From the NCBI GenBank assembly GCA_038999215.1, contig JAWABM010000016.1:1-12058 (forward strand): a stretch of 12,058 nucleotides of DNA, given 5' to 3'. Every line of letters starts with the position of its first letter. Within the stretch, counting starts at the first letter, position 1. The translations under genes and the position numbers were made by a program. The notes under the pieces are model-generated. The model did not search any database. It saw only the letters and a program-made list of their open reading frames with translations, and was not told the origin of the DNA. This DNA comes from Candidatus Aenigmatarchaeota archaeon (GTDB taxonomy: Archaea; Aenigmatarchaeota; Aenigmatarchaeia; Aenigmatarchaeales; JACQIB01). Shown one piece after another: positions 1 to 12,058 of this stretch.

Positions 1-660
1 GTAGTTAGCCAAGCGCTCTGCACAAAGCAGGAACTCCTGAGGGTTCTTTATCTCCTCCAGCATGCCGGCATAAAGCACTATCTTCTTTCCTGCAGGCAGG
101 CCCAGCTTTTCTCTCAACAAAGCCTTGCCAGCAGACCTGATTTCCTCCGGGAGCTCCATCCCGTTCGGCACAACCCTTATTTTGCTCTCGTCTATTCCGG
201 TATCCCTTGCCAGATCAGCGAGCGCATTGCTGACGCATATGAGCACATCGGAAGAATTGACGACCCTTGAGAACAGGAATTTGCCGAAGGGCTTTTTGGC
301 CCATTTCTCGAGGTCAGAGCCGTGCGAAGTTATGACTACAGGGGCATCAGTGAATTTTTTAGAAATCACTGCCGCAGTCCCTGCGGGATGAATCGGATGG
401 GCATGAACGACATCAATCCTGCGCTTCAGCTTGCGGAGGGCAAGCATCGCTCCGATAAAATATGACAAACCGCGGAGAAAAAAGAGGTTTATAACTGGCA
501 CTTCAATTATCTCCATGCCTTCTTCCTTCCTGCCGAGCCTGCCGTAAGTTATCAGCGTCACGTCGTGCCCTCTCCTTCTCAGGCCCTCCGCAAGCGCCTT
601 CGCATGCGTGGCAATCCCGCCCTTGTGCGGCGGATAACGCGAAAGCAGGCATACCTTCAT
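1..660 (-). CDS. Glycosyltransferase family 4 (GT-B fold), 3'-truncated by the window edge
   Basis: Not in the ORF track; translated by hand from ATG at 660: MKVCLLSRYPPHKGGIATHAKALAEGLRRRGHDVTLIT...IDVVHAHPIHPAG...VVITSHGSDL...ICVSNALA...IRVVPNG...IVLYAGML. These are typical GT4 motifs. The frame is open to position 1. The start overlaps the upstream stop (ATGA, 657-660). Confidence 0.93.
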   Translation of the reverse strand, partial: MKVCLLSRYPPHKGGIATHAKALAEGLRRRGHDVTLITYGRLGRKEEGMEIIEVPVINLFFLRGLSYFIGAMLALRKLKRRIDVVHAHPIHPAGTAAVISKKFTDAPVVITSHGSDLEKWAKKPFGKFLFSRVVNSSDVLICVSNALADLARDTGIDESKIRVVPNGMELPEEIRSAGKALLREKLGLPAGKKIVLYAGMLEEIKNPQEFLLCAERLANY

Positions 661-1871
661 CTTGCCCATTTCAGACACCACAACCCTATCGCGAAAAACA
701 GGAACGCCAGATAATACTGGACTATTCCCGTATCTACCCATACCAGCAGTATTGAAAGGTTTATCGCATAAAGCCCGAGGAAGAAGCTGTTCCTCGTGGC
801 CCTATATATCCTGTGCGGCAACTCGCAGAAAAATCCGACAATGATTGACCCTAATATTACGCCTATAATTCCGAACTCGAGATAGAACGGTCCCACGAAC
901 GTCGACGAGTGCGACCTTGCGGCATTTATCACCATCTCTGAAGCTATCGCGCCTATGGGAGCTATGGGATAGCCGAAGAACTGCAGCAGGAAGGACTCGA
1001 GCCAGACCCTGCCGTATGTCAGGCCGAAAAGGCCGACGTTCTTTACCATGACCGAAAGCACGTAGAGCCCGAAGCCCGTCCTTGCGAACGACAACTCCTC
1101 CACTCCCAATACGCTGCCGCCGAATATCGTCAGCAGGCACTTTATCGCAAGCAGGCCAACGATGCAGACCGCAAGAACCGATGCCAGAAACCCGGTGCCT
1201 CTCCCCCTGTTCTGCAGATAAAAGAAGAACACCAGAGGGATGACGAAGATGACCAGGTCGGTTCTGAAGCCGGAAAACACCGACAGCAGGACTGAAAGCG
1301 CTGCGAACGGCAGGAAGACCTTCCTTTCCTTGTTCTTGATTGCGGTCATCGTCATCCCCATGACATAGAATATCATGGAGACGGACCAGAGGGGATTGTG
1401 ATAGTACGCCCTTGCAACGGGCGTGAAGAGCGGTATCCCGATCTGCATGTAGTTCAGCAGCAGCCCCAATATGCCGAGCACGAAGATGCCTGCCCAGAAA
1501 TCGTAGTTCGGCGCATGGAACGGCAATTTCTTTTCCATCTTCCAGAGCCTTCCACCATATCCTACCGCAACCGCAGAAACCATCAGGAGCGCTACGCCGA
1601 AGGACCACTCCAGCGGAAAAAGTATCGGCACGTTGGAAAGCGCGCCCGTGAATATGTAAAAACCGAATATTATCAGAAGCATCCTGGATGCGCTGAATTT
1701 CTCAGGGCCGATGTAATCCGCTAATTTTTCAAGAATCGCCGAACGGACAGCGAACCTCTTCTGAGGTGCATACTGCCTTTCCCTCTCGCAAAGGCTGCCT
1801 ACCACAAGGTTTGCTGTCGCGCCCAATCTGCTTATCCAGCTGTAAAGTTTCCTTTCCAAGGACTCTATCAT
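657..1871 (-). CDS. Wzy-like oligosaccharide repeat unit polymerase family membrane protein
   Basis: 404 aa with roughly ten hydrophobic segments. Motifs GIPLF..AR, SGFRT and STFVGPFYLEFGIIG resemble archaeal Wzy-like proteins. It is coupled to both neighbours by ATGA overlaps. Confidence 0.8.
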   Translation of the reverse strand: MIESLERKLYSWISRLGATANLVVGSLCERERQYAPQKRFAVRSAILEKLADYIGPEKFSASRMLLIIFGFYIFTGALSNVPILFPLEWSFGVALLMVSAVAVGYGGRLWKMEKKLPFHAPNYDFWAGIFVLGILGLLLNYMQIGIPLFTPVARAYYHNPLWSVSMIFYVMGMTMTAIKNKERKVFLPFAALSVLLSVFSGFRTDLVIFVIPLVFFFYLQNRGRGTGFLASVLAVCIVGLLAIKCLLTIFGGSVLGVEELSFARTGFGLYVLSVMVKNVGLFGLTYGRVWLESFLLQFFGYPIAPIGAIASEMVINAARSHSSTFVGPFYLEFGIIGVILGSIIVGFFCELPHRIYRATRNSFFLGLYAINLSILLVWVDTGIVQYYLAFLFFAIGLWCLKWAR

Positions 1872-2530
1872 TTAAGCACCAGGCACTTTTGCGACAGCGT
1901 TCTGCTGCCGATGACCCTGTACCCGAAGTCAGAAAGCGCGCTTTCAACGACGTCCGCGGAGAACCCGTGTGCGAAGGAGAACTCCAGCATGGCATGCATG
2001 CCATCGGCAGCACAGCTGACCTCTCCACCGAAGGAATCCCAAAGCTTTTTGGAAACGTAGCTGCAGACAACGCTGTCTGCATCCTTGTCCAAATCCAGAT
2101 ATAGCGTCTCTGTGGTGAAATCTGCGCCCTCGCAGCCTGCTTCAGCGAAGCGGTAAACGTCCGTAGGTTTCAGCGTTATTATGCTCGAAGTTATGTACGG
2201 GGTCTGCGGAGCCAGGCCTTCTGCAAGCGGGTTCTTCTCGTCCTTCTGGAAGATCGTCTGCACGCGAGCGCCGTCCCACACGTATATCCTCGTGGCGGTT
2301 GCATCGATGACAGGGCCCTTGACTGATTTCAGGCCGAAGTCCGAGCCTATGCCTGATATCTCGGCGTCCGCGCCATACCCCTTTCCTATCAGGGTCTTGT
2401 ATGTCATTGAGGCGCCGAAGAGGTCGTTGCCCTTTGTCTGGAAATACCTGGGCTCATTCAGCGAAAAATACACGAAGGTCACTATCAGGAGCACTATCAG
2501 GATATCCGTAACTGTTATCTTCATCTTCAT
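1868..2530 (-). CDS. Hypothetical protein with an N-terminal membrane anchor
   Basis: 220 aa with an N-terminal hydrophobic stretch (ILIVLLIVTFVYFSL). Strong SD GGGGAGTGAT immediately upstream of the ATG. The stop overlaps the Wzy-like start (ATGA, 1868-1871). Confidence 0.8.
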   Translation of the reverse strand: MKMKITVTDILIVLLIVTFVYFSLNEPRYFQTKGNDLFGASMTYKTLIGKGYGADAEISGIGSDFGLKSVKGPVIDATATRIYVWDGARVQTIFQKDEKNPLAEGLAPQTPYITSSIITLKPTDVYRFAEAGCEGADFTTETLYLDLDKDADSVVCSYVSKKLWDSFGGEVSCAADGMHAMLEFSFAHGFSADVVESALSDFGYRVIGSRTLSQKCLVLK

Positions 2531-2568
2531 ATCACTCCCCTTAATTCAACGGAAGCATAATATTTATA
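2531..2568 (-). promoter_or_regulatory. Archaeal promoter (TATA box) and SD for the hypothetical/Wzy/GT4 operon
   Basis: Minus-strand TATAAATA at 2568-2561 and GGGGAGTGAT at 2540-2531. Confidence 0.65.
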
Positions 2569-2570
2569 CC

Positions 2571-3143
2571 CTATTGCCCGAGCAACACGAGCAGCAGCTT
2601 GTCCACAGCCAGGTCGAGGTCGGTGTACGTCCTGCCTTCCTCGCTGAGATCCGGCCCCTCAACAATCACGGTGTTGTTGACCAAAGTTACCTGCGTTTTG
2701 GTCGCTCCGGCGCCGGGCCCTTTCATGAATATCACAGGCTCCTTTGCAGTCGCGTTCGCGAATACCTCTGCGCTGCTGTTGGCAGGCAGCGATTCTATGG
2801 GAAGAGATTCGCCGAACATCACGACATAAATAGTGCCCAGCTTGTAAGCAATCTCAAAACCGTCCACAGCGTAGTAGGAGTTTTCCGTGTCATTCGAGAT
2901 GAAGGCTATCCTCACCTTCTCCACGTCGGCTCCGAGCAGGACCTTCTTTATTTCGAGCTCCGAGGGGTATACGGGCACTTTCGCAGCCTCGTTAAGGTTC
3001 GCCCTGAACTCCACGTCCTTCTCTCCTATCTTCAATTTGTAAGGGTTTTGCGTCACGCAACCGGACGAAATGACAACTGCTACCAGAAGTAGTGCGATGA
3101 AGCGATAAGAATGAAAAAAAGGGAAAAAGGGGAATCGGCTCAT
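2571..3143 (-). CDS. Putative lipoprotein (hypothetical)
   Basis: 190 aa. The hydrophobic signal FIALLLVAVVI is followed by the lipobox-like SSGC. Four N-glycosylation sequons (NDT, NSS, NAT, NNT). No other ATG/GTG/TTG lies before the lipobox. Confidence 0.78.
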   Translation of the reverse strand: MSRFPFFPFFHSYRFIALLLVAVVISSGCVTQNPYKLKIGEKDVEFRANLNEAAKVPVYPSELEIKKVLLGADVEKVRIAFISNDTENSYYAVDGFEIAYKLGTIYVVMFGESLPIESLPANSSAEVFANATAKEPVIFMKGPGAGATKTQVTLVNNTVIVEGPDLSEEGRTYTDLDLAVDKLLLVLLGQ

Positions 3144-3155
3144 AAGCCTTACCCC
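3114..3155 (-). terminator. Hairpin plus oligo-T tracts, probable terminator of the S-layer gene
   Basis: Minus strand reads GGGGTAAGGCT-TATG-AGCCGATTCCCC followed by TTTTTCCCTTTTTTT, starting 13 nt after the S-layer stop. Confidence 0.6.
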
Positions 3156-3167
3156 ATTTCCAATCTC

Positions 3168-5276
3168 TTACGCGAGAGCCGTTATGCCCGTCGAGGTCAA
3201 GCTCGTTATCTTGACCTTCGTGTCGGTCTTTCCAGCCAGCAAGCCCTGCTGTACCGCGTCGGTTCCCATCCTTGTCTCAGTCCTTGTGGTTCCGGCTATC
3301 ACAACCGCTGTCTTGCCTGTTGTGAAGGCGTCCTTCACGACTGCGACAACTGCGAACTTTTCGGTCGGCCATGTCTTGCAGCTGTACGGGAACTTTCCTG
3401 CTGTCGCGAGCTCCTCAACGAGGCTGTTTGCGCAAGGCCCTCCGACCAATATGAGGTCCTTTGCTGTCTTGCTCACTTCGGTGTCTAGCTTCGCAACGCT
3501 GGACGTTATGGGTATCGCTTCCTTGTAGGTCGTTCCGCCTGTCGTGGCGGTCGCGCCCACAGGACCCACTGTTATTGTTCCCTTGACCTGCTCGGACGGC
3601 ACGTCGATATAGACCCTGTCGTTCTCGGCGTTCGATTTCGGACTCCTTATTATCGCTCCTGTGTTCGTCAGGACGTCCTCTTCCCTTGTGCCGAGCTCAT
3701 ATGTGCCGTACACAAAGTCGGTTGCATCCGCCGTAGCCGCGGTCGCTCCGAGACCGGTGAACGTTCCGCTAGATTCCTTCACTGTTATGTTTATGCTCTT
3801 AGCGGTCGGCGAGGTCTGCGTCTCTGTCAGCAACAGCTGGTTCGTAGTGTTGTACCACTTCATGTCATATGTCGTGTCCTGGTAGGTCAGGTCCGCGAAA
3901 TTGTCCCCGTCCGTTCCTGTCGCTCCGGCGTACTGCACCCTGTTGTTCGAGTCCACATAGTACACGTAGACATTTCCTGTCGACAGTGTGCTGTTGGACA
4001 GCAGGTATATGGTCTTTGTGTAGTCGTTCACGCTTCCTGTGTTCACATAGAACGCGTCCGTCGTGTCGGCTGTGGACAGCTTCAGGACTGTTGCCGAAGA
4101 GCTGCCTCCTCCGTATGACAGGTCCACTCCGGTCGTGTATTCTATCTTATACCTCGCATATGTTACAGGCGATATCTTGTCGAAGCTGATCTGCGCATAG
4201 TCGTTCGGGAACTTGAACACCGTACCAACCATCGGTGGATTGTCCGCATAGTTGTCCAGGTTCTTCACGAACTTCACGCTTATCTTGTGCTTCGCGTTGC
4301 CCGATGTCAATCCTGTGAGATCCCACTTCCAGTTCGGGTCGTTCTTGTCCTCGCCTATGTACGGATCGTCGTTCTGATAGGTCTTTGTTATGTCCGAGCC
4401 AAGCTGCAGGATTACCACGCTGTTCTCGGGTGTCTGAGACTGGTAAAGGATGCTCTTCACCTTCACCTTCAGCCCGTTTATCGTGGATTCCGTCGTGGTC
4501 GCTATGTCCGACACTCCGTCGACCGAAACGTCGACCGAATCCGAGCCTATTGTGTTGACCGTCACGGTCTTTCCGTCAACAGTCGCGGATTCTCCCTGCT
4601 TGAACCTCTTCTCTTCGGCTATTGTCGCCGTGAACTGGTTCGTTCCGACCGATGTTATTTTCAGGTCCTTTCCAAGCACTTTTATGGTCAGCGGATAGGT
4701 AGACGATATCTTCGTCGTGTTTATGTTCTCGTCGAAGGTAAAGTTGTACCTTACCCCACCATTGGCTATCTGCAGGAACGGCTTATCCTTGAACTCCTTG
4801 TCCACACCAGACGTACCAGTCACTTTTATCATCTGGTCTCCACTGTTGGCTATGATGATCTGTTCCTGGAAGTCATACTGGTCCGATCCGTCAGCGTTTG
4901 TCCAGCTGACCGAGCTGTCCGTGAGCACGCTCGGTATGGACGAATGCTTTATCACTTCCTTCAGGTTCCCGGAGCTCGTTACATTAACTCCGAAAACGAT
5001 GTCCTGCGATTCCACACCGGAAACTGCTCCGCCAACAGCCGTCTTTGTCTGGCCCGCTTCGGCCGCCAGCCTCACTCCGACATCGATGGCACCCACAACG
5101 TCCGCAGACGCTGCGTTCGCACCGACAACGATCGTCGGGAATGACACTGTGCTGTCGCTTACGCTGACCAGCTTGGTTATCTCTCCCACGTTGTTCTGCG
5201 CCAGGGCCGCTCCAGCCATCGTCATGCCAGCGACGAGTGCTGTTCCAGCCATAGCCGCAATTTTCCTGAATTGCAT
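3168..5276 (-). CDS. S-layer protein (Methanococcales/Thermococcales/DPANN type, with conserved N- and C-terminal domains)
   Basis: 702 aa, Thr/Ser/Val/Gly-rich. Signal peptide MQFRKIAAMAGTALVAGMTMAGAALA, N-terminal motif IVVGANAASADVVGAIDVG and C-terminal motif KLDTEV...LILVGGPCANSL...VVIAG are hallmarks of this family. SD AGGAGGT at 5291-5285. Confidence 0.92.
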   Translation of the reverse strand: MQFRKIAAMAGTALVAGMTMAGAALAQNNVGEITKLVSVSDSTVSFPTIVVGANAASADVVGAIDVGVRLAAEAGQTKTAVGGAVSGVESQDIVFGVNVTSSGNLKEVIKHSSIPSVLTDSSVSWTNADGSDQYDFQEQIIIANSGDQMIKVTGTSGVDKEFKDKPFLQIANGGVRYNFTFDENINTTKISSTYPLTIKVLGKDLKITSVGTNQFTATIAEEKRFKQGESATVDGKTVTVNTIGSDSVDVSVDGVSDIATTTESTINGLKVKVKSILYQSQTPENSVVILQLGSDITKTYQNDDPYIGEDKNDPNWKWDLTGLTSGNAKHKISVKFVKNLDNYADNPPMVGTVFKFPNDYAQISFDKISPVTYARYKIEYTTGVDLSYGGGSSSATVLKLSTADTTDAFYVNTGSVNDYTKTIYLLSNSTLSTGNVYVYYVDSNNRVQYAGATGTDGDNFADLTYQDTTYDMKWYNTTNQLLLTETQTSPTAKSINITVKESSGTFTGLGATAATADATDFVYGTYELGTREEDVLTNTGAIIRSPKSNAENDRVYIDVPSEQVKGTITVGPVGATATTGGTTYKEAIPITSSVAKLDTEVSKTAKDLILVGGPCANSLVEELATAGKFPYSCKTWPTEKFAVVAVVKDAFTTGKTAVVIAGTTRTETRMGTDAVQQGLLAGKTDTKVKITSLTSTGITALA

Positions 5277-5284
5277 TGTTTCTT

Positions 5285-5291
5285 ACCTCCT
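5285..5291 (-). promoter_or_regulatory. Shine-Dalgarno site of the S-layer gene
   Basis: AGGAGGT, 8 nt upstream of the ATG at 5276. Confidence 0.8.
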
Positions 5292-5465
5292 ATGTCTGTA
5301 TTTTGTTTCGATTTTCTTTGCGCGGTGTATGCGCTTACTTTTGGCGCCAATTTTTAGCGCACAAACCAAACGGTTTGCGTTTGGATCGCGCCAAAAAGGA
5401 TTACGTATTGTTCTTTCTCTCTTCGGCGCCACATTTTTTCTAGGATATCTATGTATCAGGGGGGA

Positions 5466-5473
5466 TATAAAAA
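5466..5473 (-). promoter_or_regulatory. Candidate TATA box of the S-layer gene
   Basis: Minus-strand TTTTTATA, the best TATA match I see in the 5277-5543 intergenic region. It implies a leader of about 160 nt. Confidence 0.5.
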
Positions 5474-5543
5474 TACCAAGAAACTGTTTCTATATGACCT
5501 AAAAAAGCTCTACTAATACATCAGAAATGCCTAATATTCATAA

Positions 5544-6482
5544 TTAGCGCTTCTGATTGTTTCCAGAGCCTTTTTGTTCCTTATTTTCGATATTGCGGCT
5601 CAAAAACACCTTATTTTTTCTTCCAAGACGCTCGGTTTTCACAATCCCCCTTTCCTCAAGGCTTTTCAGCAGTTTCGAGACTTTCGCCTTCGAGTAGCCG
5701 GATTCCTCGACCAGGGTCTTCTGATTGGTAAAGCCCTTCGAGCTCATCAGCTTCTCGACTATCATCTTCTCATCCTTCTTCAAAACAGGAATAAACATTT
5801 TCACTCCTATTTTCTGCCTGTAAATGTAGAAAGTGAAAGCAAGCAGACCTGCAATCACGACCAATGGCACCGCCAAAAACAAGAGTGGAAGCTCGCTGTT
5901 TGTCGCGCCTTTGATGCTCTCGTAAGTCGTTGATACATAAAGACCGTTGCCTGGGCCGACGTCATGCGTGCTCCATATTACTATCATTCTCCTGCCGTCG
6001 CTCGCATAAAGGCAATTGGAAGGAAGGCATGGCGCAAGATTGCTGTTCTGCTGGACCAGCACGCAGCCTTCCGGAAGATTGACCTTTATGTACAGGGTAT
6101 TGGCAACCACAGGCGTCCTGTAGTCAGATGAAAAAACCATTTTGCCATTGGATATTTTTATCAGGGAATTTGCCTTGTATCTTATTTCCATCTTGCCAGA
6201 TTGCAATTTGGTAAGATCGCAGGATATCTTCGAGATGGGGCCGTTTTCTATTCTGCAATTCATCTGCTTACCGTCTGCAAGAACAGAGACGTTGGTTATG
6301 TCAGAAAAGATGTTATATTCCAAATAATCGGTTGGGCCCACAAAATTTATATTGACAACATGATCGACCGTCCCGTCCTCCTTGACATCGGCTATTATGC
6401 CGAGATAATCTATCTGAACCGCCAGCGCTGGCTGGACCGCCAAGGCAAAGATGACCAACGAGCTCAGCAGCAGTTTTTTCAT
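5544..6482 (-). CDS. Membrane-anchored protein with an extracellular beta-rich domain and a C-terminal winged HTH (COG2512-like)
   Basis: Signal peptide MKKLLLSSLVIFALAVQPALA (ATG at 6482 preferred over GTG at 6491), a beta-rich ectodomain, a TM helix LLFLAVPLVVIAGLLAFTFYIY, then the wHTH LKKDEKMIV...QKTLVEESGYSKAKVSKLLKSLEERGIVKTERLGRKNKV. Confidence 0.85.
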   Translation of the reverse strand: MKKLLLSSLVIFALAVQPALAVQIDYLGIIADVKEDGTVDHVVNINFVGPTDYLEYNIFSDITNVSVLADGKQMNCRIENGPISKISCDLTKLQSGKMEIRYKANSLIKISNGKMVFSSDYRTPVVANTLYIKVNLPEGCVLVQQNSNLAPCLPSNCLYASDGRRMIVIWSTHDVGPGNGLYVSTTYESIKGATNSELPLLFLAVPLVVIAGLLAFTFYIYRQKIGVKMFIPVLKKDEKMIVEKLMSSKGFTNQKTLVEESGYSKAKVSKLLKSLEERGIVKTERLGRKNKVFLSRNIENKEQKGSGNNQKR

Positions 6483-6494
6483 TCTTACCACTTT

Positions 6495-6932
6495 TCACGG
6501 CTTGCCGTGAACAACCACTACGCCTCCGACTCCTGCGGCAGCGAACCTGTGTATCATTTCAGCGACGGAGTTGAGTATCGACTGCGCCTCGCCTATGTCG
6601 GTCGTAAGCTTCTTCGGCTCGAGTATCTCTATCGAGGAAGGCCCGAACTCTATGACGAACCCGACAAGGTCCTCGAATTTCTTCGATACCGCCTCCAGCT
6701 GCACGACCTGGGACCAACCCTCCTTCACGCCAGGGATGGGATTCTCCACCTTGCTGGCCTCCGAAGAATCCTTCCTGTATATCCTCACCCTCTTGTCCTC
6801 TTCCATTTTCTTCAGCAGGCTCTCGAGCGACTTCTTCGTGACGTCCTCGCTTATGGCCAGGGCTTCGAAAGCCAGCCAGACCCTTATCCATCCGTCCCTG
6901 ACCATGTCCTTTGCTTCGGATTCCGTAATCAA
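6495..6932 (-). CDS. Hypothetical archaeal protein (small alpha/beta fold)
   Basis: 145 aa. TTG start with SD GGTGA (6943-6939) and a TATA-like TTTTAATA (6974-6967). The motif FEDLVGFVIEFGPSSIEILEP resembles a family I recall from DPANN/Euryarchaeota (not verified). Confidence 0.8.
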   Translation of the reverse strand: MITESEAKDMVRDGWIRVWLAFEALAISEDVTKKSLESLLKKMEEDKRVRIYRKDSSEASKVENPIPGVKEGWSQVVQLEAVSKKFEDLVGFVIEFGPSSIEILEPKKLTTDIGEAQSILNSVAEMIHRFAAAGVGGVVVVHGKP

Positions 6933-6979
6933 GCGCGTTCACCTTTTATTAGGTTGAATCGGAAACTATTAAAACTTTG

Positions 6980-8011
6980 TCATTTGTTAGATGGAAACTG
7001 TTTCCGCAGCGACCACTTCATGCCGGCCAAAGGTATCTTCTGGCCACAGCCGCATTTGCCAGCCTTCAGGCCGATGCTCACTAGGCTGGAACCGAACCTT
7101 TCTATAACCACGCGCCCGCAGGAAGGGCACATGGTCGATTCGTGAACGTTTCCTGGAACGTTTCCGAGGTAAACGTAATTCAGGCCCTCTTTTTTTGCGG
7201 CTTCATAAGCCTTATCGAGCATACTGACATCGGTCCTGCCGGTGCAGACCTTGTAGGATGGGAAAAACTGGATGAAATGCAGAGGCACGTCCGGACCGAG
7301 GTTATCAGCAATCCATCTGCAGACCTTACTCGTTCTTTTGATATCCGATTCCGGCATTATCAAATCCGTAACCTCAAAAAACACCCCATTCTCCTTGTAG
7401 GCCATCATAGCATCATATATCGGCTGAACATCCGGCACCATCGACTGCTTCCTGTAAAAATCCGGATCAAGCGAGGATTTCAGGTCTATCACGGCGGCAT
7501 CAAGGAACGACGAGGCCTTCCTTATGGCCTCAGGCGTAGTGTAGCCGTTTGTGACGAAGATATTATACAGCCCTTTCTTTTTCGCAAGCAATGCCGTGTC
7601 CTGCGCATATTCGAAGAATATGGTTGGCTCGGTGTAGGTATAAGCCATGCCATGCAGGCCGTTCTCCAGGGCGACAGCGACCAGCTTCTCCGGCGGGGCG
7701 TCCTCGCCCCTTATTCCCTCCCATTCCTGCGAGATGGCATAATTGCAGCAGAAGCTGCAGCGGAAGTTGCAGCCGACTGTCGAAACTGAGAGGTTCAGCG
7801 ACCCCGGCGCGAAATGGAAGAGCGGCTTCTTCTCTATCGGATCGATGCCTATCGAGGAGGCCTTGCCGTAAACGAGCGAATAAAGCCTCCCCCCTTTGTT
7901 CTGGCGCACCCTGCAAACGCCGACGCCGCCTTCCGGTATCAAGCAGCGCCTGCAGCACAGGCCGCAGCGCACCGCCCCCGCCTCGGACTTCCAGAACAGG
8001 GCCTCTTTCAT
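6980..8011 (-). CDS. amrS: AmmeMemoRadiSAM system radical SAM enzyme
   Basis: Start reassigned to MKEALFW (ATG at 8011, 343 aa). N-terminal CGLCCRRC...GVCRVR, DPIEKKPLFHF, CxxxCxxC (CNFRCSFC), AYTYTEPT, VTNGY, and C-terminal YVYLGNV...CPSCG. Confidence 0.92.
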   Translation of the reverse strand: MKEALFWKSEAGAVRCGLCCRRCLIPEGGVGVCRVRQNKGGRLYSLVYGKASSIGIDPIEKKPLFHFAPGSLNLSVSTVGCNFRCSFCCNYAISQEWEGIRGEDAPPEKLVAVALENGLHGMAYTYTEPTIFFEYAQDTALLAKKKGLYNIFVTNGYTTPEAIRKASSFLDAAVIDLKSSLDPDFYRKQSMVPDVQPIYDAMMAYKENGVFFEVTDLIMPESDIKRTSKVCRWIADNLGPDVPLHFIQFFPSYKVCTGRTDVSMLDKAYEAAKKEGLNYVYLGNVPGNVHESTMCPSCGRVVIERFGSSLVSIGLKAGKCGCGQKIPLAGMKWSLRKQFPSNK

Positions 8012-8049
8012 AAAGATTATATACCTTCCGAGGTTTAAGTTATTCTTAT
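8012..8049. promoter_or_regulatory. Overlapping divergent promoters for amrS and tRNA-Thr
   Basis: 38-bp spacer with plus-strand TTATATAC (8017-8024) ahead of the tRNA and minus-strand CTTAAACC (8039-8032) ahead of an amrS ATG that has no SD. Confidence 0.5.
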
Positions 8050-8167
8050 GCCTCGGTGGCTCAGCCGGTAGAGCGGCCGCCTCGTAATCAGAACCCGGAC
8101 GGTTCCGATACCTCCGGACTGACGCGCGAGCGGCAGGTCGGGAGTTCAAATCTCCCCCGGGGCTCCA
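8050..8167 (+). tRNA. tRNA-Thr(CGT) with a 42-nt intron at position 37/38 (8087-8128); CCA encoded
   Basis: Acceptor stem GCCTCGG/CCGGGGC, D stem GCTC/GAGC, anticodon stem GCCGC/GCGGC, anticodon CGT at 8083-8085, T arm GGGAG-TTCAAAT-CTCCC, discriminator T, then CCA. The intron forms a BHB-like motif closed by TCAG/CTGA. Confidence 0.93.
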
Positions 8168-8169
8168 TC

Positions 8170-8190
8170 AAACCTTCTTTGGAAAAGAAG
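8170..8190 (+). repeat. tRNA trailer motif/hairpin, partly repeated after tRNA-Val
   Basis: CTTCTTT-GGA-AAAGAAG hairpin (8174-8190). CAAACCTTCTTT (8169-8180) recurs at 11322-11333. Confidence 0.55.
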
Positions 8191-8248
8191 CCTTACCAAG
8201 AAACATCAAACTTTTAAAACCTAGCATGCATTACTTCCTTTGATTGGT

Positions 8249-8551
8249 ATGGCAGAGTGGATGGCATTCGTAAAGAAAGAGAACGTGAAAAAGGCGGAGA
8301 ACGCCCTGAGGACGGATTTTGACGTGGCCGCGAAGCAGTCCATAACCGTTAAGGATGCTCGATCGCTCGGCATGAAGGAAGAAGGCAGCTTCTTCTACAT
8401 CTCTGGCACAGAGGAAGGGATAAAGAGGTGCCAAGAGCTGATCAAGGGAATGACGGCACAGATTGACCAGAAGCATCTTGACAAAGCCAGGGAGGAGATA
8501 AAGAAGGAGGAGGAAGCGGCTGCCGAGGGGATGGGCGGAATATTCGGCTAA
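8249..8551 (+). CDS. Small hypothetical archaeal protein (about 100 aa)
   Basis: MAEWMAFVKKENVKKAENAL...KQSITVKDARSLG...EEEAAAEGMGGIFG. The composition is protein-like and the C-terminal GxGxIFG resembles an archaeal family I recall. TATA-like TTTTAAAA at 8212-8219. ATG at 8249 preferred over TTG at 8240. Confidence 0.82.
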   Translation: MAEWMAFVKKENVKKAENALRTDFDVAAKQSITVKDARSLGMKEEGSFFYISGTEEGIKRCQELIKGMTAQIDQKHLDKAREEIKKEEEAAAEGMGGIFG

Positions 8552-8871
8552 GGAATGAGATCATAAATCTCTATGCCTTCCAGGACCAGCTCGTCCAGCA
8601 CCGTCAGTACATATTTGCTACCGTAATATATCCTGAACTCTTTGGCGGACTTGCCGTGCTGCTTAAGCATTGCCCTGAATCGGCGGTCGTCATAGACCAC
8701 CTGGTCAATCGGTGGCTTGGCCACAGGAACCGAGCTTGGCTCATCGCATACCACGCAGATATCTATATCTTTGCCATCGGGATTGCCATAGCAGAAAACT
8801 GCCCTCAGGCCGCCCTTGTTCGCGCTTATCAGCTTCCTTATGCGCCCCATCGCTTCCGCATCGCACGGCAT
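8548..8871 (-). CDS. Minimal nucleotidyltransferase (Pol-beta superfamily)-like protein, divergent
   Basis: 107 aa from ATG at 8871. AVFCYGNPDGKDIDICVV matches the hhhhGS-x(n)-DhDhhhh motif with S replaced by N and a short spacer. A possible third Asp lies in PIDQVVY. Confidence 0.55.
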   Translation of the reverse strand: MPCDAEAMGRIRKLISANKGGLRAVFCYGNPDGKDIDICVVCDEPSSVPVAKPPIDQVVYDDRRFRAMLKQHGKSAKEFRIYYGSKYVLTVLDELVLEGIEIYDLIP

Positions 8872-8902
8872 AGAGGAATATTTGCGGCAAAAAGGATTTA
8901 AT

Positions 8903-8976
8903 TGGTGCGCCTGGCGGGATTCGAACCCGCGTCGTAAGCTTGGGAAGCTCAAATCCTGCCACTAGACTACAGGCGC
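8903..8976 (-). tRNA. tRNA-Gly(CCC); CCA encoded
   Basis: Minus strand: GCGCCTG TA GTCT AGTGGCA GGAT T TGAGC TTCCCAA GCTTA CGAC GCGGG TTCGAAT CCCGC CAGGCGC A CCA. Complete cloverleaf with anticodon CCC. Confidence 0.95.
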
Positions 8977-9623
8977 TTCAGCTCCCTAAGGGCATCGGAT
9001 GCTATCCATCTGGCTGCCTTAGAGTCAATATCCATGATTTCTTCGGAAACTTTTATAGCTTCCTTCCTCAGCCTCATGTTGCGCTTTCCTATCTGGCGTA
9101 GGGCCCAGTTCACGGCCTTCCTGACAAAATTGCGCTCATCTGTTGAGCATTTCTTTATCAACGGGAAGAATCTGCGGAACTTCTCGTCGCCGGCCTTCTT
9201 GTCATGAACTGCGAGGCAAGCCATCATGGCGAATCCTGCCCTGCGCACGAACTCGTCCTTGCTGGCCGCCCACTCGAAGGGCTTCTTCCAAGCGAACTTC
9301 GTCTTGCCCCAGAGGCTGCTGCAGCATTGGTCGCAGACGTCCCATGAATAGAAACTCTTTGTCCATTCGTCCATCTGGCGCTCAGTCACCTTTTCTGGCT
9401 CATCTATGAAGCAGGCAAGGAGCTTGAGCTCATGCACGTTCCTCTTCCACAGCCTTTGCGCGAGCTCGTGGTCTTTCCCTATCCTTTTGGCCATCTTTCT
9501 CAATATGGGAACAGGCACGCCCAGAGCAGTTTCGGCTGCTATTCCGAAGCGCGCCATGCCGTCCCTGTTCCTTGCGGAAGCAAGCGGCCCCAGCTCTGCC
9601 AGAATCTCCCTTTCGCTCGTCAT
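8967..9623 (-). CDS. DNA alkylation repair protein (AlkD-like HEAT-repeat DNA glycosylase family)
   Basis: 218 aa with family motifs GMARFGI, LGVPVPILRKMAK, SWDVCDQ, EFVRRAG and DERNFVRKAVNWALRQIGKR. Confidence 0.9.
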   Translation of the reverse strand: MTSEREILAELGPLASARNRDGMARFGIAAETALGVPVPILRKMAKRIGKDHELAQRLWKRNVHELKLLACFIDEPEKVTERQMDEWTKSFYSWDVCDQCCSSLWGKTKFAWKKPFEWAASKDEFVRRAGFAMMACLAVHDKKAGDEKFRRFFPLIKKCSTDERNFVRKAVNWALRQIGKRNMRLRKEAIKVSEEIMDIDSKAARWIASDALRELKRL

Positions 9624-11191
9624 TCAGACACTTCCCTGCCCGTCACTCCGTCTATCTTTATCACCCTTTCCGAAAAATGCACAGAATAGACTGGATAATA
9701 GAACAAGTCAAAGCGGACTATTTCTGTCGTCGGGTTCAGGGCCTTGAGCACGTCTCTCAGCGCCTGCTCGCTCACTTTTTGACCTACCACCCTTCCAGGC
9801 GCCTTCTGCTCCTTCGCAGGATAGGGCACGCTCGATGTGACGTTCGGAATCGCAAGCTTGAACAGCGGGACATATGTCCTGGCCCTGCCGTCCTTCCCTG
9901 AGTAGGTTATGAACCTTCTTGCTTCAAGGCTGTTTATCACGCTCCTTATGCCGCTGTCCTTGAGCCCTAGCCTGAGCCCGAGCTCAGCAGCAGTGATGCC
10001 CTTCGCGCGCGATATCTCCAGCATGGCCCTTGTCTCGCTCTCGTTCAGGCCTATTAGCTGGGATATGCCTGTCCTGAATCTCAGCCCGCGGTCCGTTTCA
10101 GCAAATTTTCCGTTTGTGCCGTCGATTATGAAGGAATACGTCCTGAATCCCTTCTTGAGAAAGCCTTCGGCCCTCTTGACCTCAACAAAAATCAAAGGAT
10201 ATTGCAGCAGCTCTACGCCGGTCACGGCCTCCTTCTTGCCGAAGAGGCAGTATTTTTTCCTCCTTTTGGACTCGACTATTTTCAATATGTCCTCCTTGCC
10301 TATCCTCAGCCCGATTGTCGGCAGGATCCTTGTCGGCTGACCCTTTGGTTGCTCCCCGACCCCAACTTCCCTGGGTCCGCTACCCTTCAGTTCCGCGCTT
10401 ATCTCTGCTATCCTGCCTATCTTCTTCGGGATGAGCCTTGGCGTCAGCCCTTTGTGCTGCGTTTCCCGAGGATAGCTCTTCATCTTGACCTTTGTCTTTG
10501 AGATGTTGCCCATAACGAAGAATTCGCCGGACTTGAGCTTCGGCAGGTCCTCCAGCTCCCTCCTGTCCGCGAAGAACAGGTTCACGGCCGCGAGGTCATT
10601 CTCTGTCGTAAGCTTGCCGATAAACTGGTTGCCGCACTGGCTGAGCACATTCTTGTTCACGAGCGCAGGCCGCTGCGTCGCCACGATAAGCCCCAATCCG
10701 CGCTTCCTGCCACGGCGCGATATTTCCTCTATCTCCTTCATCGATTCCTTGGACTGGGGCACGAACTTGTCGGCCTCCTCTAATATAAGCAGGTAAGGCA
10801 GCCTCAGCCTCGTGTCCGCGTCGTACAGGGCCTTCACGAACTCGGCCACGACCTTCCGCTCGTCCATGACATCCGAGACATCGAGAATCATTGGTATGTT
10901 CTCCTTTATTACTTTCTCGGCGAGCTCCGCATAGTTAAGGCCTTCTATCGCCAGATCAGAACCTTCGCCGCCGACCCAGAGGATTTCGAACTTCTCCTTG
11001 AGCGAGAAGTATTCGCCCTCCGTGTCGATGATGCAAAAGGCTATGTTGTTCCTCAGCAAATGCTCGCAGAGCACCGCTATCAGGTAGCTCTTGCCCGCGC
11101 CAGACTGAGCTATGATGCATGTGCGCCCTGTGACCAGCTCCTGCGCGTCCGCTGAAAAATTCCTGGCAATCTTAAGTTCGATGCCGTCCAT
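9620..11191 (-). CDS. HerA/FtsK-superfamily (DUF87-like) ATPase with a C-terminal winged HTH
   Basis: Walker A AQSGAGKS, IIDTEGEY, Walker B LILEEAD, and arginine-finger/sensor region RRGRKRGLGLIVATQRPA. wHTH at GITAAELGLRLGLKDSGIRSVINSLEARRFI. ATGA overlap with the AlkD-like gene. Confidence 0.88.
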   Translation of the reverse strand: MDGIELKIARNFSADAQELVTGRTCIIAQSGAGKSYLIAVLCEHLLRNNIAFCIIDTEGEYFSLKEKFEILWVGGEGSDLAIEGLNYAELAEKVIKENIPMILDVSDVMDERKVVAEFVKALYDADTRLRLPYLLILEEADKFVPQSKESMKEIEEISRRGRKRGLGLIVATQRPALVNKNVLSQCGNQFIGKLTTENDLAAVNLFFADRRELEDLPKLKSGEFFVMGNISKTKVKMKSYPRETQHKGLTPRLIPKKIGRIAEISAELKGSGPREVGVGEQPKGQPTRILPTIGLRIGKEDILKIVESKRRKKYCLFGKKEAVTGVELLQYPLIFVEVKRAEGFLKKGFRTYSFIIDGTNGKFAETDRGLRFRTGISQLIGLNESETRAMLEISRAKGITAAELGLRLGLKDSGIRSVINSLEARRFITYSGKDGRARTYVPLFKLAIPNVTSSVPYPAKEQKAPGRVVGQKVSEQALRDVLKALNPTTEIVRFDLFYYPVYSVHFSERVIKIDGVTGREVSE

Positions 11192-11214
11192 AAAATATCC
11201 TATTTCCGTTCAAA

Positions 11215-11223
11215 ATATATAAG
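11215..11223. promoter_or_regulatory. Shared bidirectional TATA element for the ATPase operon and tRNA-Val
   Basis: ATATATAAG reads TATATAAG on plus and TTATATAT on minus. It lies about 24 nt from both the ATG at 11191 and the tRNA start at 11248. Confidence 0.6.
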
Positions 11224-11242
11224 CCCTTGCCAGCAATAGGTT

Positions 11243-12058
11243 TCAGGGGGCCGGTGGTCCAGCGGTTAAGACGCCACCCTTACAAGGTGGATATCGCAAG
11301 TTCGAATCTTGCCCGGCCCACCAAACCTTCTTTAACGGAGAATCTTTATAAAGAATCTCATTAATGGTTTGTGTCTTAGCTGCATTGGTTATAGCGTTGT
11401 TTATAGCATCTGTTAAATTAGCCAATGCCTTGTTTCTATCAGCGGTATAGCGTTCTTCCATGATGGTATATTTATCATGTAACGAACGCATCTGGTTTTG
11501 CTTTCTCTGCAAATAGTCATTAATCAGGCTGGCAGTGCTCACAGATGCCTGATTTGCTATTCCTACGTTTTTATTCTGAGTGTCAGATATAATATTAGCA
11601 GCATCGGTAGCAGCCTGCCCAGACATCACAGCTGCCTGAGCAGCAGCCACCTGTGGTGGTAAATAGGCACCTACCTGCTCCATACCCATTTTATATGCCT
11701 GTTGATTGGCCTGCAATGCCCTGTTAGGATCTAAGAGAGAATAATCCGGTAACGTAACCATCGGCTCCGGCTCGTATGGTGGTCTCTTCTTAATAGAATA
11801 CAGATTATGCAAAGCCTGGGCAATCCTGTTCTTATCCTGTAAAAAGTAATACCCCCTGGCTTTTAGTTTAGGTCCTAGTGGTTCTTCTATCTTTGGTTTT
11901 TCTATCTTTGATTCTTCTTTAGCTATCCCGGTTTGTTCTTCTTTCTTAGCTGGTTCGGTTTTTGGAGTTTCTTTGGTAGGTTCAGCAAAAACACTTAAAT
12001 CCAGCATAAACTGGTTTTGCGTCCTGTCACCGTAATAACCATCAACCGCACTAATATT
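11243..12058 (-). CDS. Phage-like (possibly crAss-like virion) protein fragment: 5' end outside the window, last ~30 codons derived from the antisense of tRNA-Val and its trailer
   Basis: The frame is open to the window end (NISAVDGYYGDRTQNQF precedes the tracked Met). It has a Pro/Lys/Glu-rich linker and then an Ala/Gln/Asn-rich helical region (LDPNRALQANQQA...NNAITNAAKTQTIN). The DNA is AT-richer than the genes to its left. The phage assignment is from recollection only. Confidence 0.6.
   Translation of the reverse strand, partial: NISAVDGYYGDRTQNQFMLDLSVFAEPTKETPKTEPAKKEEQTGIAKEESKIEKPKIEEPLGPKLKARGYYFLQDKNRIAQALHNLYSIKKRPPYEPEPMVTLPDYSLLDPNRALQANQQAYKMGMEQVGAYLPPQVAAAQAAVMSGQAATDAANIISDTQNKNVGIANQASVSTASLINDYLQRKQNQMRSLHDKYTIMEERYTADRNKALANLTDAINNAITNAAKTQTINEILYKDSPLKKVWWAGQDSNLRYPPCKGGVLTAGPPAP
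11248..11323 (+). tRNA. tRNA-Val(TAC); CCA encoded
   Basis: Acceptor stem GGGCCGG/CCGGCCC, anticodon arm CCACC-CTTACAA-GGTGG (TAC at 11281-11283), T arm GCAAG-TTCGAAT-CTTGC, then A and CCA. Confidence 0.96.
11334..12058. mobile_element. Foreign, lower-GC DNA abutting the 3' end of tRNA-Val (integrated element or chimeric join)
   Basis: Hand counts give 34/60 GC at 11101-11160 versus 19/60 at 11341-11400. The reading frame collides with the tRNA. No integrase is visible in the window. Confidence 0.45.

Follow-up and report, generated by a model that had tools for sequence, protein, structure and literature searches.

The window, that is, the whole stretch of DNA analysed here, is the entire contig C16 (12,058 nt) of an archaeal assembly that totals 571 kb in 24 contigs and is rated 87.9% complete and 0.06% contaminated. 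Scaffold gaps in this assembly are runs of 10 or 20 N, which we take to be the style of SPAdes scaffolds. C16 carries archaeal-type genes, an S-layer gene among them. The features relevant to its right-hand end are as follows.

3168-5276: S-layer-like protein, 702 aa, PF05124
8050-8167: tRNA-Thr(CGT) with a 42-nt intron, detected only with the intron search switched on
8170-8202, plus strand: intact hairpin copy after the intron-bearing tRNA-Thr(CGT), an internal control for host DNA behind a tRNA
9620-11191, minus strand: host HerA-like ATPase gene (DUF87 and winged helix), the synteny anchor upstream of tRNA-Val
11248-11323, plus strand: host tRNA-Val(TAC), intact, with CCA encoded (tRNA prediction; exact 76-nt copies elsewhere)
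11243-11334, minus strand: spurious 30-residue tail of a presumed chimeric ORF, antisense to the hairpin arm and the tRNA; non-coding
11323-11334, plus strand: the host hairpin repeat that follows tRNAs, here reduced to its left arm (AAACCTTCTTT) and the first base of its loop (A)
11334-11335, no strand: left bound of the host/phage junction, where contigs of runs X1, X2 and X4 come loose from the window at 11335
11335-11355, plus strand: phage sequence similar, in register, to the host hairpin's right half
11335-12058, minus strand: internal piece of a crAss-like phage gene (residues 768-1008 of 1,107), from the probable post-muzzle cargo-protein block

The 76-nt tRNA-Val(TAC) gene is identical in locus L005, from the same order and another family, and in the metagenome contig L016. 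The same-genus copy (L002:2151-2237) has diverged and contains a 13-nt intron. Five host proteins that we looked up were each found on one contig, with no second assembly of the host.

Origin of the last 724 nucleotides

The first-pass annotation had described an AT-richer composition after about 11333, a minus-strand ORF that is open from the window edge and has no stop before the tRNA, a gene that looked cut at the junction, and a resemblance of its product to crAss-like virion proteins. Each of these points is borne out. G+C falls from 0.523 in 1-11334 to 0.414 in 11335-12058, and GC3 is 0.37 in the phage piece versus 0.70-0.72 in the host HerA-like and S-layer genes. The ORF (11243-12058, 271 aa) reads antisense through tRNA-Val; it is open at the window edge because the contig ends there, and its passage through the tRNA is simply a cut gene running on to the next stop and is meaningless.

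Positions 11335-12058 correspond to 38510-39233 of a 98,522-nt contig from a hot-spring metagenome (run X1, possibly the source sample), with 724 of 724 nt identical. Four of the seven runs listed were compared with the window. Contigs of X1, X2 and X4, which belong to two studies, cross 11335 and continue into the remainder of the phage gene, not into the tRNA, and the flank beyond 11335 is the same in all three apart from one letter in X4. Among the matches listed, X1, X2 and X4 gave no near-identical host pieces, X3 gave host pieces at a depth of 2.6-4.3 and no phage, and no contig bridged host and phage; none of this was counted as evidence. At the protein level, a search among longer proteins returned 8 matches from 2,074 candidates. 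The best of these, P0001 (1,107 aa, 100% identical), is encoded on the 98,522-nt contig; the window frame is its residues 768-1008 (241 residues), and 99 more residues follow beyond the break, so the gene is indeed cut at the junction. Homologues close in length to the whole ORF of the window were absent (0 of 637 candidates). All three exact chimeric proteins are likewise missing from the protein collection, a weak result since the assembly's own versions are absent too.

At E <= 0.001 the wider protein family comprises 735 representatives. Of 154 family proteins tested, P0001 included, 149 could be aligned, and 139 of these extend at least 10 aa beyond the break. In IMG/VR, relatives are encoded in 84 of 211 candidate stretches, of which 80 were kept. 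The gene lies upstream of the same partner family of about 1,000 aa in all 80 viral loci, and a very large gene is present in 77. Upstream neighbours of the relatives are crassvirus ring (PF25702, PF24228) and muzzle (PF25731) genes. Among the first 50 of the 80 related virus records, the muzzle family is found in 39 at E <= 0.001 (36 over the cut-off), including all 14 records that are at least 90% complete, compared with none of 14 control genomes; a tyrosine integrase (PF00589) is found in none of the 50. In a complete relative, G317, the order is terminase, portal, crassvirus capsid (PF23898), rings, muzzle, the family of the phage gene, and giant genes, so that a syntenic terminase, portal, capsid and tail block is present, as read in this one complete relative and not in the donor contig. 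The giant genes of G317 are ORFs of 2,880 and at least 3,779 aa without a match to an RNA polymerase family; one of them has a DFDID motif, which we take to be the motif of virion RNA polymerases.

The predicted structure of the phage protein is all-helical, with one long helix and several short ones (pLDDT 79, pTM 0.49), and its top viral fold neighbours are structural proteins of crAssphage and Cellulophaga phi14:2, only one of them at E <= 0.001. More direct searches were negative. There was no fold match in the PDB, where a profile search gave low-complexity rows only, and no Pfam or PHROGs match for the fragment or P0001, the single E = 0.05 row that each returned for the fragment being taken as chance. 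Equally, tblastn against GenBank phages found no match, scans of IMG/VR for the donor (single protein, exact pattern) found none, and none of 176 candidate stretches for close relatives in GTDB genome contigs was confirmed.

In the phage PhiCrAss001, passages of PMC10172136 identify gp44 as the muzzle and gp45 and gp46 as cargo proteins that are thought to form an ejection channel. The relatives' gene has a comparable position in the cargo block, after the ring and muzzle genes and before very large genes. From gene order and fold neighbours, the product of the phage gene is most likely a cargo (ejection) protein of the virion. Its likeness to gp45/gp46 is one of position and fold rather than demonstrated orthology: PF25725 was not found above the cut-off in the phage protein, nor in any of five complete relatives, and the N-terminal part scores 0.93 by features to a PF25725 cargo-1 cluster, at rank 7.

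A viral origin of 11335-12058 is confirmed by these comparisons, and the donor appears to be crAss-like, its class being read from the genes of its relatives. Full-length archaeal homologues, which had been named as a check on both the truncation and the phage origin, did not emerge: none of 300 further genomes from the phylum contains the family. We also searched the assembly with the ORFs of a complete related phage (128) and of 20 viral loci (233); the family of the phage gene alone matched, and at C16 only, in a search where the relatives are about 30% identical and weak matches could be missed.

The junction and the host hairpin repeat

Phage DNA begins at 11335. The gene had been described as fused directly onto the 3' end of the tRNA, with AAACCTTCTTT as a remnant of a phage att site, and neither description is correct: the phage start lies 11 nt past the CCA of tRNA-Val, inside a hairpin loop, and AAACCTTCTTT belongs to the host, as the left arm of a hairpin that also occurs 3' of other tRNAs. 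This repeat is about 33 nt long and stands directly 3' of several host tRNA genes, with copies at the following positions.

C1:13231
C5:2347 and C5:18738
C14:2724 and C14:2764, in tandem
window 8170-8202

Bases 11323-11334 are the final ones that the phage cannot have supplied, given that the phage contigs part from the window at 11335. The boundary 11334/11335 is a left bound, as host sequence could reach a few bases beyond it if these are the same in host and phage. Folding indicates that both C14 copies are stable (z -5.1 and -3.7) and that the copy at 8170 is weak (z -1.7); in the copy at 11323-11334 the stem is lost. The strict hairpin pattern is present in 2 of 41 genomes, and relatives therefore cannot supply the exact spacer. 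Possible roles for the repeat include a terminator, a processing signal or a small mobile repeat.

The phage sequence at the break resembles the host hairpin. Over its first 21 bases it agrees with the loop and right half at 15 of 21 positions in four of the six hairpin copies and at 13 of 21 in the other two. Matches of at least 15/21 have a background frequency of 6e-5 to 1.2e-4 among 3,080,602 21-mers of related viral DNA, in a test that was made post hoc. Judging from this similarity, the phage-side join looks sequence-guided, and 11335-11355 is likely the site of a mis-pairing.

The other half of the host locus on contig C8

The continuation of the host locus is found on a different contig, C8, which has the following features at its end.

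C8:24856-24739: tRNA-Ala(GGC)
C8:24883, minus strand: right half of the hairpin, AAAGAAGCTTAATCAAGAA, directly before tRNA-Ala(GGC), with the left arm absent
C8:24887-28822 (L100, about 2388-6323): second end of presumed chimeric origin, 3,936 nt running to the contig end

The 3,936-nt piece has a G+C of 0.333 versus 0.553, and its bacterial genes have a GC3 of 0.28-0.29 versus about 0.71 in the host. It encodes a cation-efflux protein, a CCA-less tRNA-Thr(CGT), a vWA/OmpA protein, a trypsin-like protein and a short ORF. Over 3,583 nt it is 77% identical to a Candidatus Kapabacteria contig, and it is 74% identical to an Ignavibacteria contig; three of its four ORFs and the tRNA-Thr(CGT) are in the same order on these contigs. 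L105 and L106, the two bacterial loci compared, have no homologue of the short ORF. Over 109 aa this ORF is identical to an intact protein of 135 aa, after which it runs on into the hairpin; its neighbours are found on independent contigs. When the vWA/OmpA protein was compared with 300 other genomes of the phylum, 61 matched weakly and in single domains (best E 2.7e-12). Nothing more of the bacterial loci was found in the assembly.

A comparison with related genomes, which the first-pass annotation had proposed, supports the view that the archaeal parts of C16 and C8 belong together. In one stretch of a same-genus contig, a match to C16:6543-11221 is followed by tRNA-Val(TAC) and then by a match to C8:23977-21759. 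A tRNA-Ala(GGC)-like gene after tRNA-Val can be read by eye in this genome, with no call from ARAGORN or Rfam. In three of nine other loci scanned, tRNA-Val(TAC) is followed by tRNA-Ala(GGC), namely L007 (38 nt apart), L005 (487 nt) and L016 (600 nt), and the remaining six have different tRNAs or none. L016 was found in a scan of metagenomes for the tRNA-Val pattern and is the locus of another organism, not the host's empty site. The hairpin halves on C16 and C8 do not abut perfectly, with one unexplained loop base on C8, and the spacer may therefore hold two tandem copies of the hairpin, as on C14.

In summary of the two ends, each foreign piece has an intact counterpart elsewhere, is interrupted mid-gene at the hairpin motif and runs to a contig end, and the host flanks adjoin in a same-genus genome.

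Interpretation of the two joins

Very probably, a single host locus was broken at the hairpin and each of its ends was extended with a different foreign DNA, giving a double chimera. The join in the window is almost certainly not a feature of the genome, and the terminal piece is genuine phage DNA that was almost certainly joined to the archaeal chromosome in sequencing or assembly. A chimeric join had been offered in the first-pass annotation as one of two options, the other being a virus integrated in an archaeon, and it is the former that is supported by the recovery of the missing host continuation on C8, itself joined to unrelated bacterial DNA.

We propose that the real chromosome has tRNA-Val(TAC), a short spacer with the hairpin repeat and tRNA-Ala(GGC), as suggested by synteny and by the two halves of the motif, and that the hairpin loop is where the assembly breaks. 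The left end (C16) would have acquired DNA from a co-occurring crAss-like phage, at a place where the phage resembles the right half of the hairpin, and the right end (C8) chromosomal DNA from a co-occurring Kapabacteria- or Ignavibacteria-like bacterium. A hairpin that is repeated, and a tRNA that is identical in relatives, would make the true continuation hard to assemble. The mechanisms by which libraries and assemblers create chimeras are general knowledge. Here the most likely route, at about even odds, is that a strand mis-primed in library amplification, on a hairpin that it matches in part and where true spanning reads were few; the next candidate, a mismatch-tolerant overlap merge in scaffolding, is plausible and somewhat less probable. 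As in other chimeric contigs of metagenome-assembled genomes, the foreign pieces are short, lie at contig ends, come from co-occurring organisms and are cut mid-gene at a repeat. The present case differs from chimeric contigs generally in that both sides of one break were recovered in one bin, each with a different donor, in one hairpin loop.

The strongest competitor, which we nevertheless consider very improbable, is a real and recent insertion, in which scavenged foreign DNA entered the loop of the hairpin that separates tRNA-Val from tRNA-Ala. In such a case there would be one insert, with phage DNA at the C16 end, Bacteroidota chromosome at the C8 end and an unassembled middle, acquired by a nick at the hairpin and microhomology-guided repair. 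Both joins do lie in the same hairpin loop, the host genome contains two tyrosine recombinases, and the sequence guidance suggested for the phage-side join, the only one at which the 15/21 resemblance was measured, fits mis-priming but would also fit real recombination. In addition, the donors are plausibly one Bacteroidota host-virus pair, in line with the host range given in passages of PMC10136315, as a single real insert would predict. However, decay is absent: the phage piece is 100% identical to the free contig, the bacterial ORF is identical for 109 aa, and GC3 is unameliorated at both ends. Moreover, both ends are cut mid-gene, derive from two different replicons and each run to a contig end, and neither other phage genes nor further parts of the bacterial loci were found in the assembly. 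If this insertion were real, a small symbiotic archaeon would have captured the DNA of a phage-infected Bacteroidota neighbour, and the hairpin would be a capture site for cross-domain DNA, seen before decay.

Still less probable is a classical provirus at the 3' end of tRNA-Val with an attP inside the virion gene. Proviruses and islands that target tRNAs have their attL at the tRNA 3' end, and C16 is like them in having AT-richer foreign DNA close behind an intact tRNA. It is unlike them in most other respects. The free phage has no tRNA-end core (attP) beside its break, and the join is in a host repeat 11 nt downstream of the tRNA. A direct repeat of the tRNA 3' end (attR) had been suggested as a check; none was found across the 88% complete assembly, where the longest exact repeat is 16 nt, lies behind a different tRNA and is part of the host motif, nor is there a tRNA-Val repeat at the C8 border. 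Instead of a phage arm, the locus has unrelated bacterial chromosome DNA on its far side, and the rest of the viral genome was not found in the assembly. Integration would also destroy a gene that keeps its place beside the partner family in every one of the 80 viral loci, and the related virus records that were surveyed lack a tyrosine integrase. Passages of PMC10136315 describe crAss-like phages as apparently strictly lytic, and also mention a minority of CRISPR spacer matches to these phages from archaeal genomes. A non-exhaustive literature search found no report of an archaeal crAss-like provirus. Finally, a native archaeal gene ending in or near the tRNA has a negligible probability: the contig does carry archaeal-type genes, but the sequence is identical to the interior of a 1,107-aa protein whose relatives are in 84 viral stretches and in none of the other genomes of the phylum that were searched.

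Our preferred reading, the double chimera, has consequences for how this assembly is used. The join is no evidence for a crAss-like phage infecting or integrating in an archaeon, and yet host-prediction pipelines that rely on proviruses or shared sequence would take from it that an archaeon is the host of a crAss-like virus, located at a tRNA. The contamination score of 0.06% missed both foreign ends of the bin. We advise masking 724 nt at the end of C16 and 3.9 kb at the end of C8, and the OmpA-domain and similar genes of C8 should not be taken as transfers to the archaeon.

As a by-product of this analysis, a crAss-like phage of about 98.5 kb is present in hot-spring metagenomes of two studies, as the 98,522-nt contig and close variants (P0001-P0004). 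There is no close-range match to it among GenBank phages or in IMG/VR, and its hot-spring source sets it apart from the known gut crAss-like phages. A Kapabacteria-like bacterium is a candidate host.

Other regions of the assembly were considered in connection with the junction. Both tyrosine recombinases of the host are on contigs other than C16, and we rejected a role for them at the tRNA-Val site, to which nothing links them. Window 11350-11369 also matches C1:62025, next to a recombinase gene, over 20 nt (E = 0.12), a similarity that was taken as chance. Among the other low-GC contig ends, that of C2 is a single glycosylation-type membrane gene, and the C1 boundary has no hairpin half. The low-GC end of C1 (C1:61236-62947; L101 9237-10948) contains an IS240-type DDE transposase and a 276-aa tyrosine recombinase. 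Lastly, after the tRNA cluster on C14, the region C14:3001-6571 (L103 1501-5071) encodes a 435-aa tyrosine recombinase, a 256-aa ORF and a 358-aa reverse transcriptase (PF00078), a layout that we take to resemble a diversity-generating retroelement on an integrated element.
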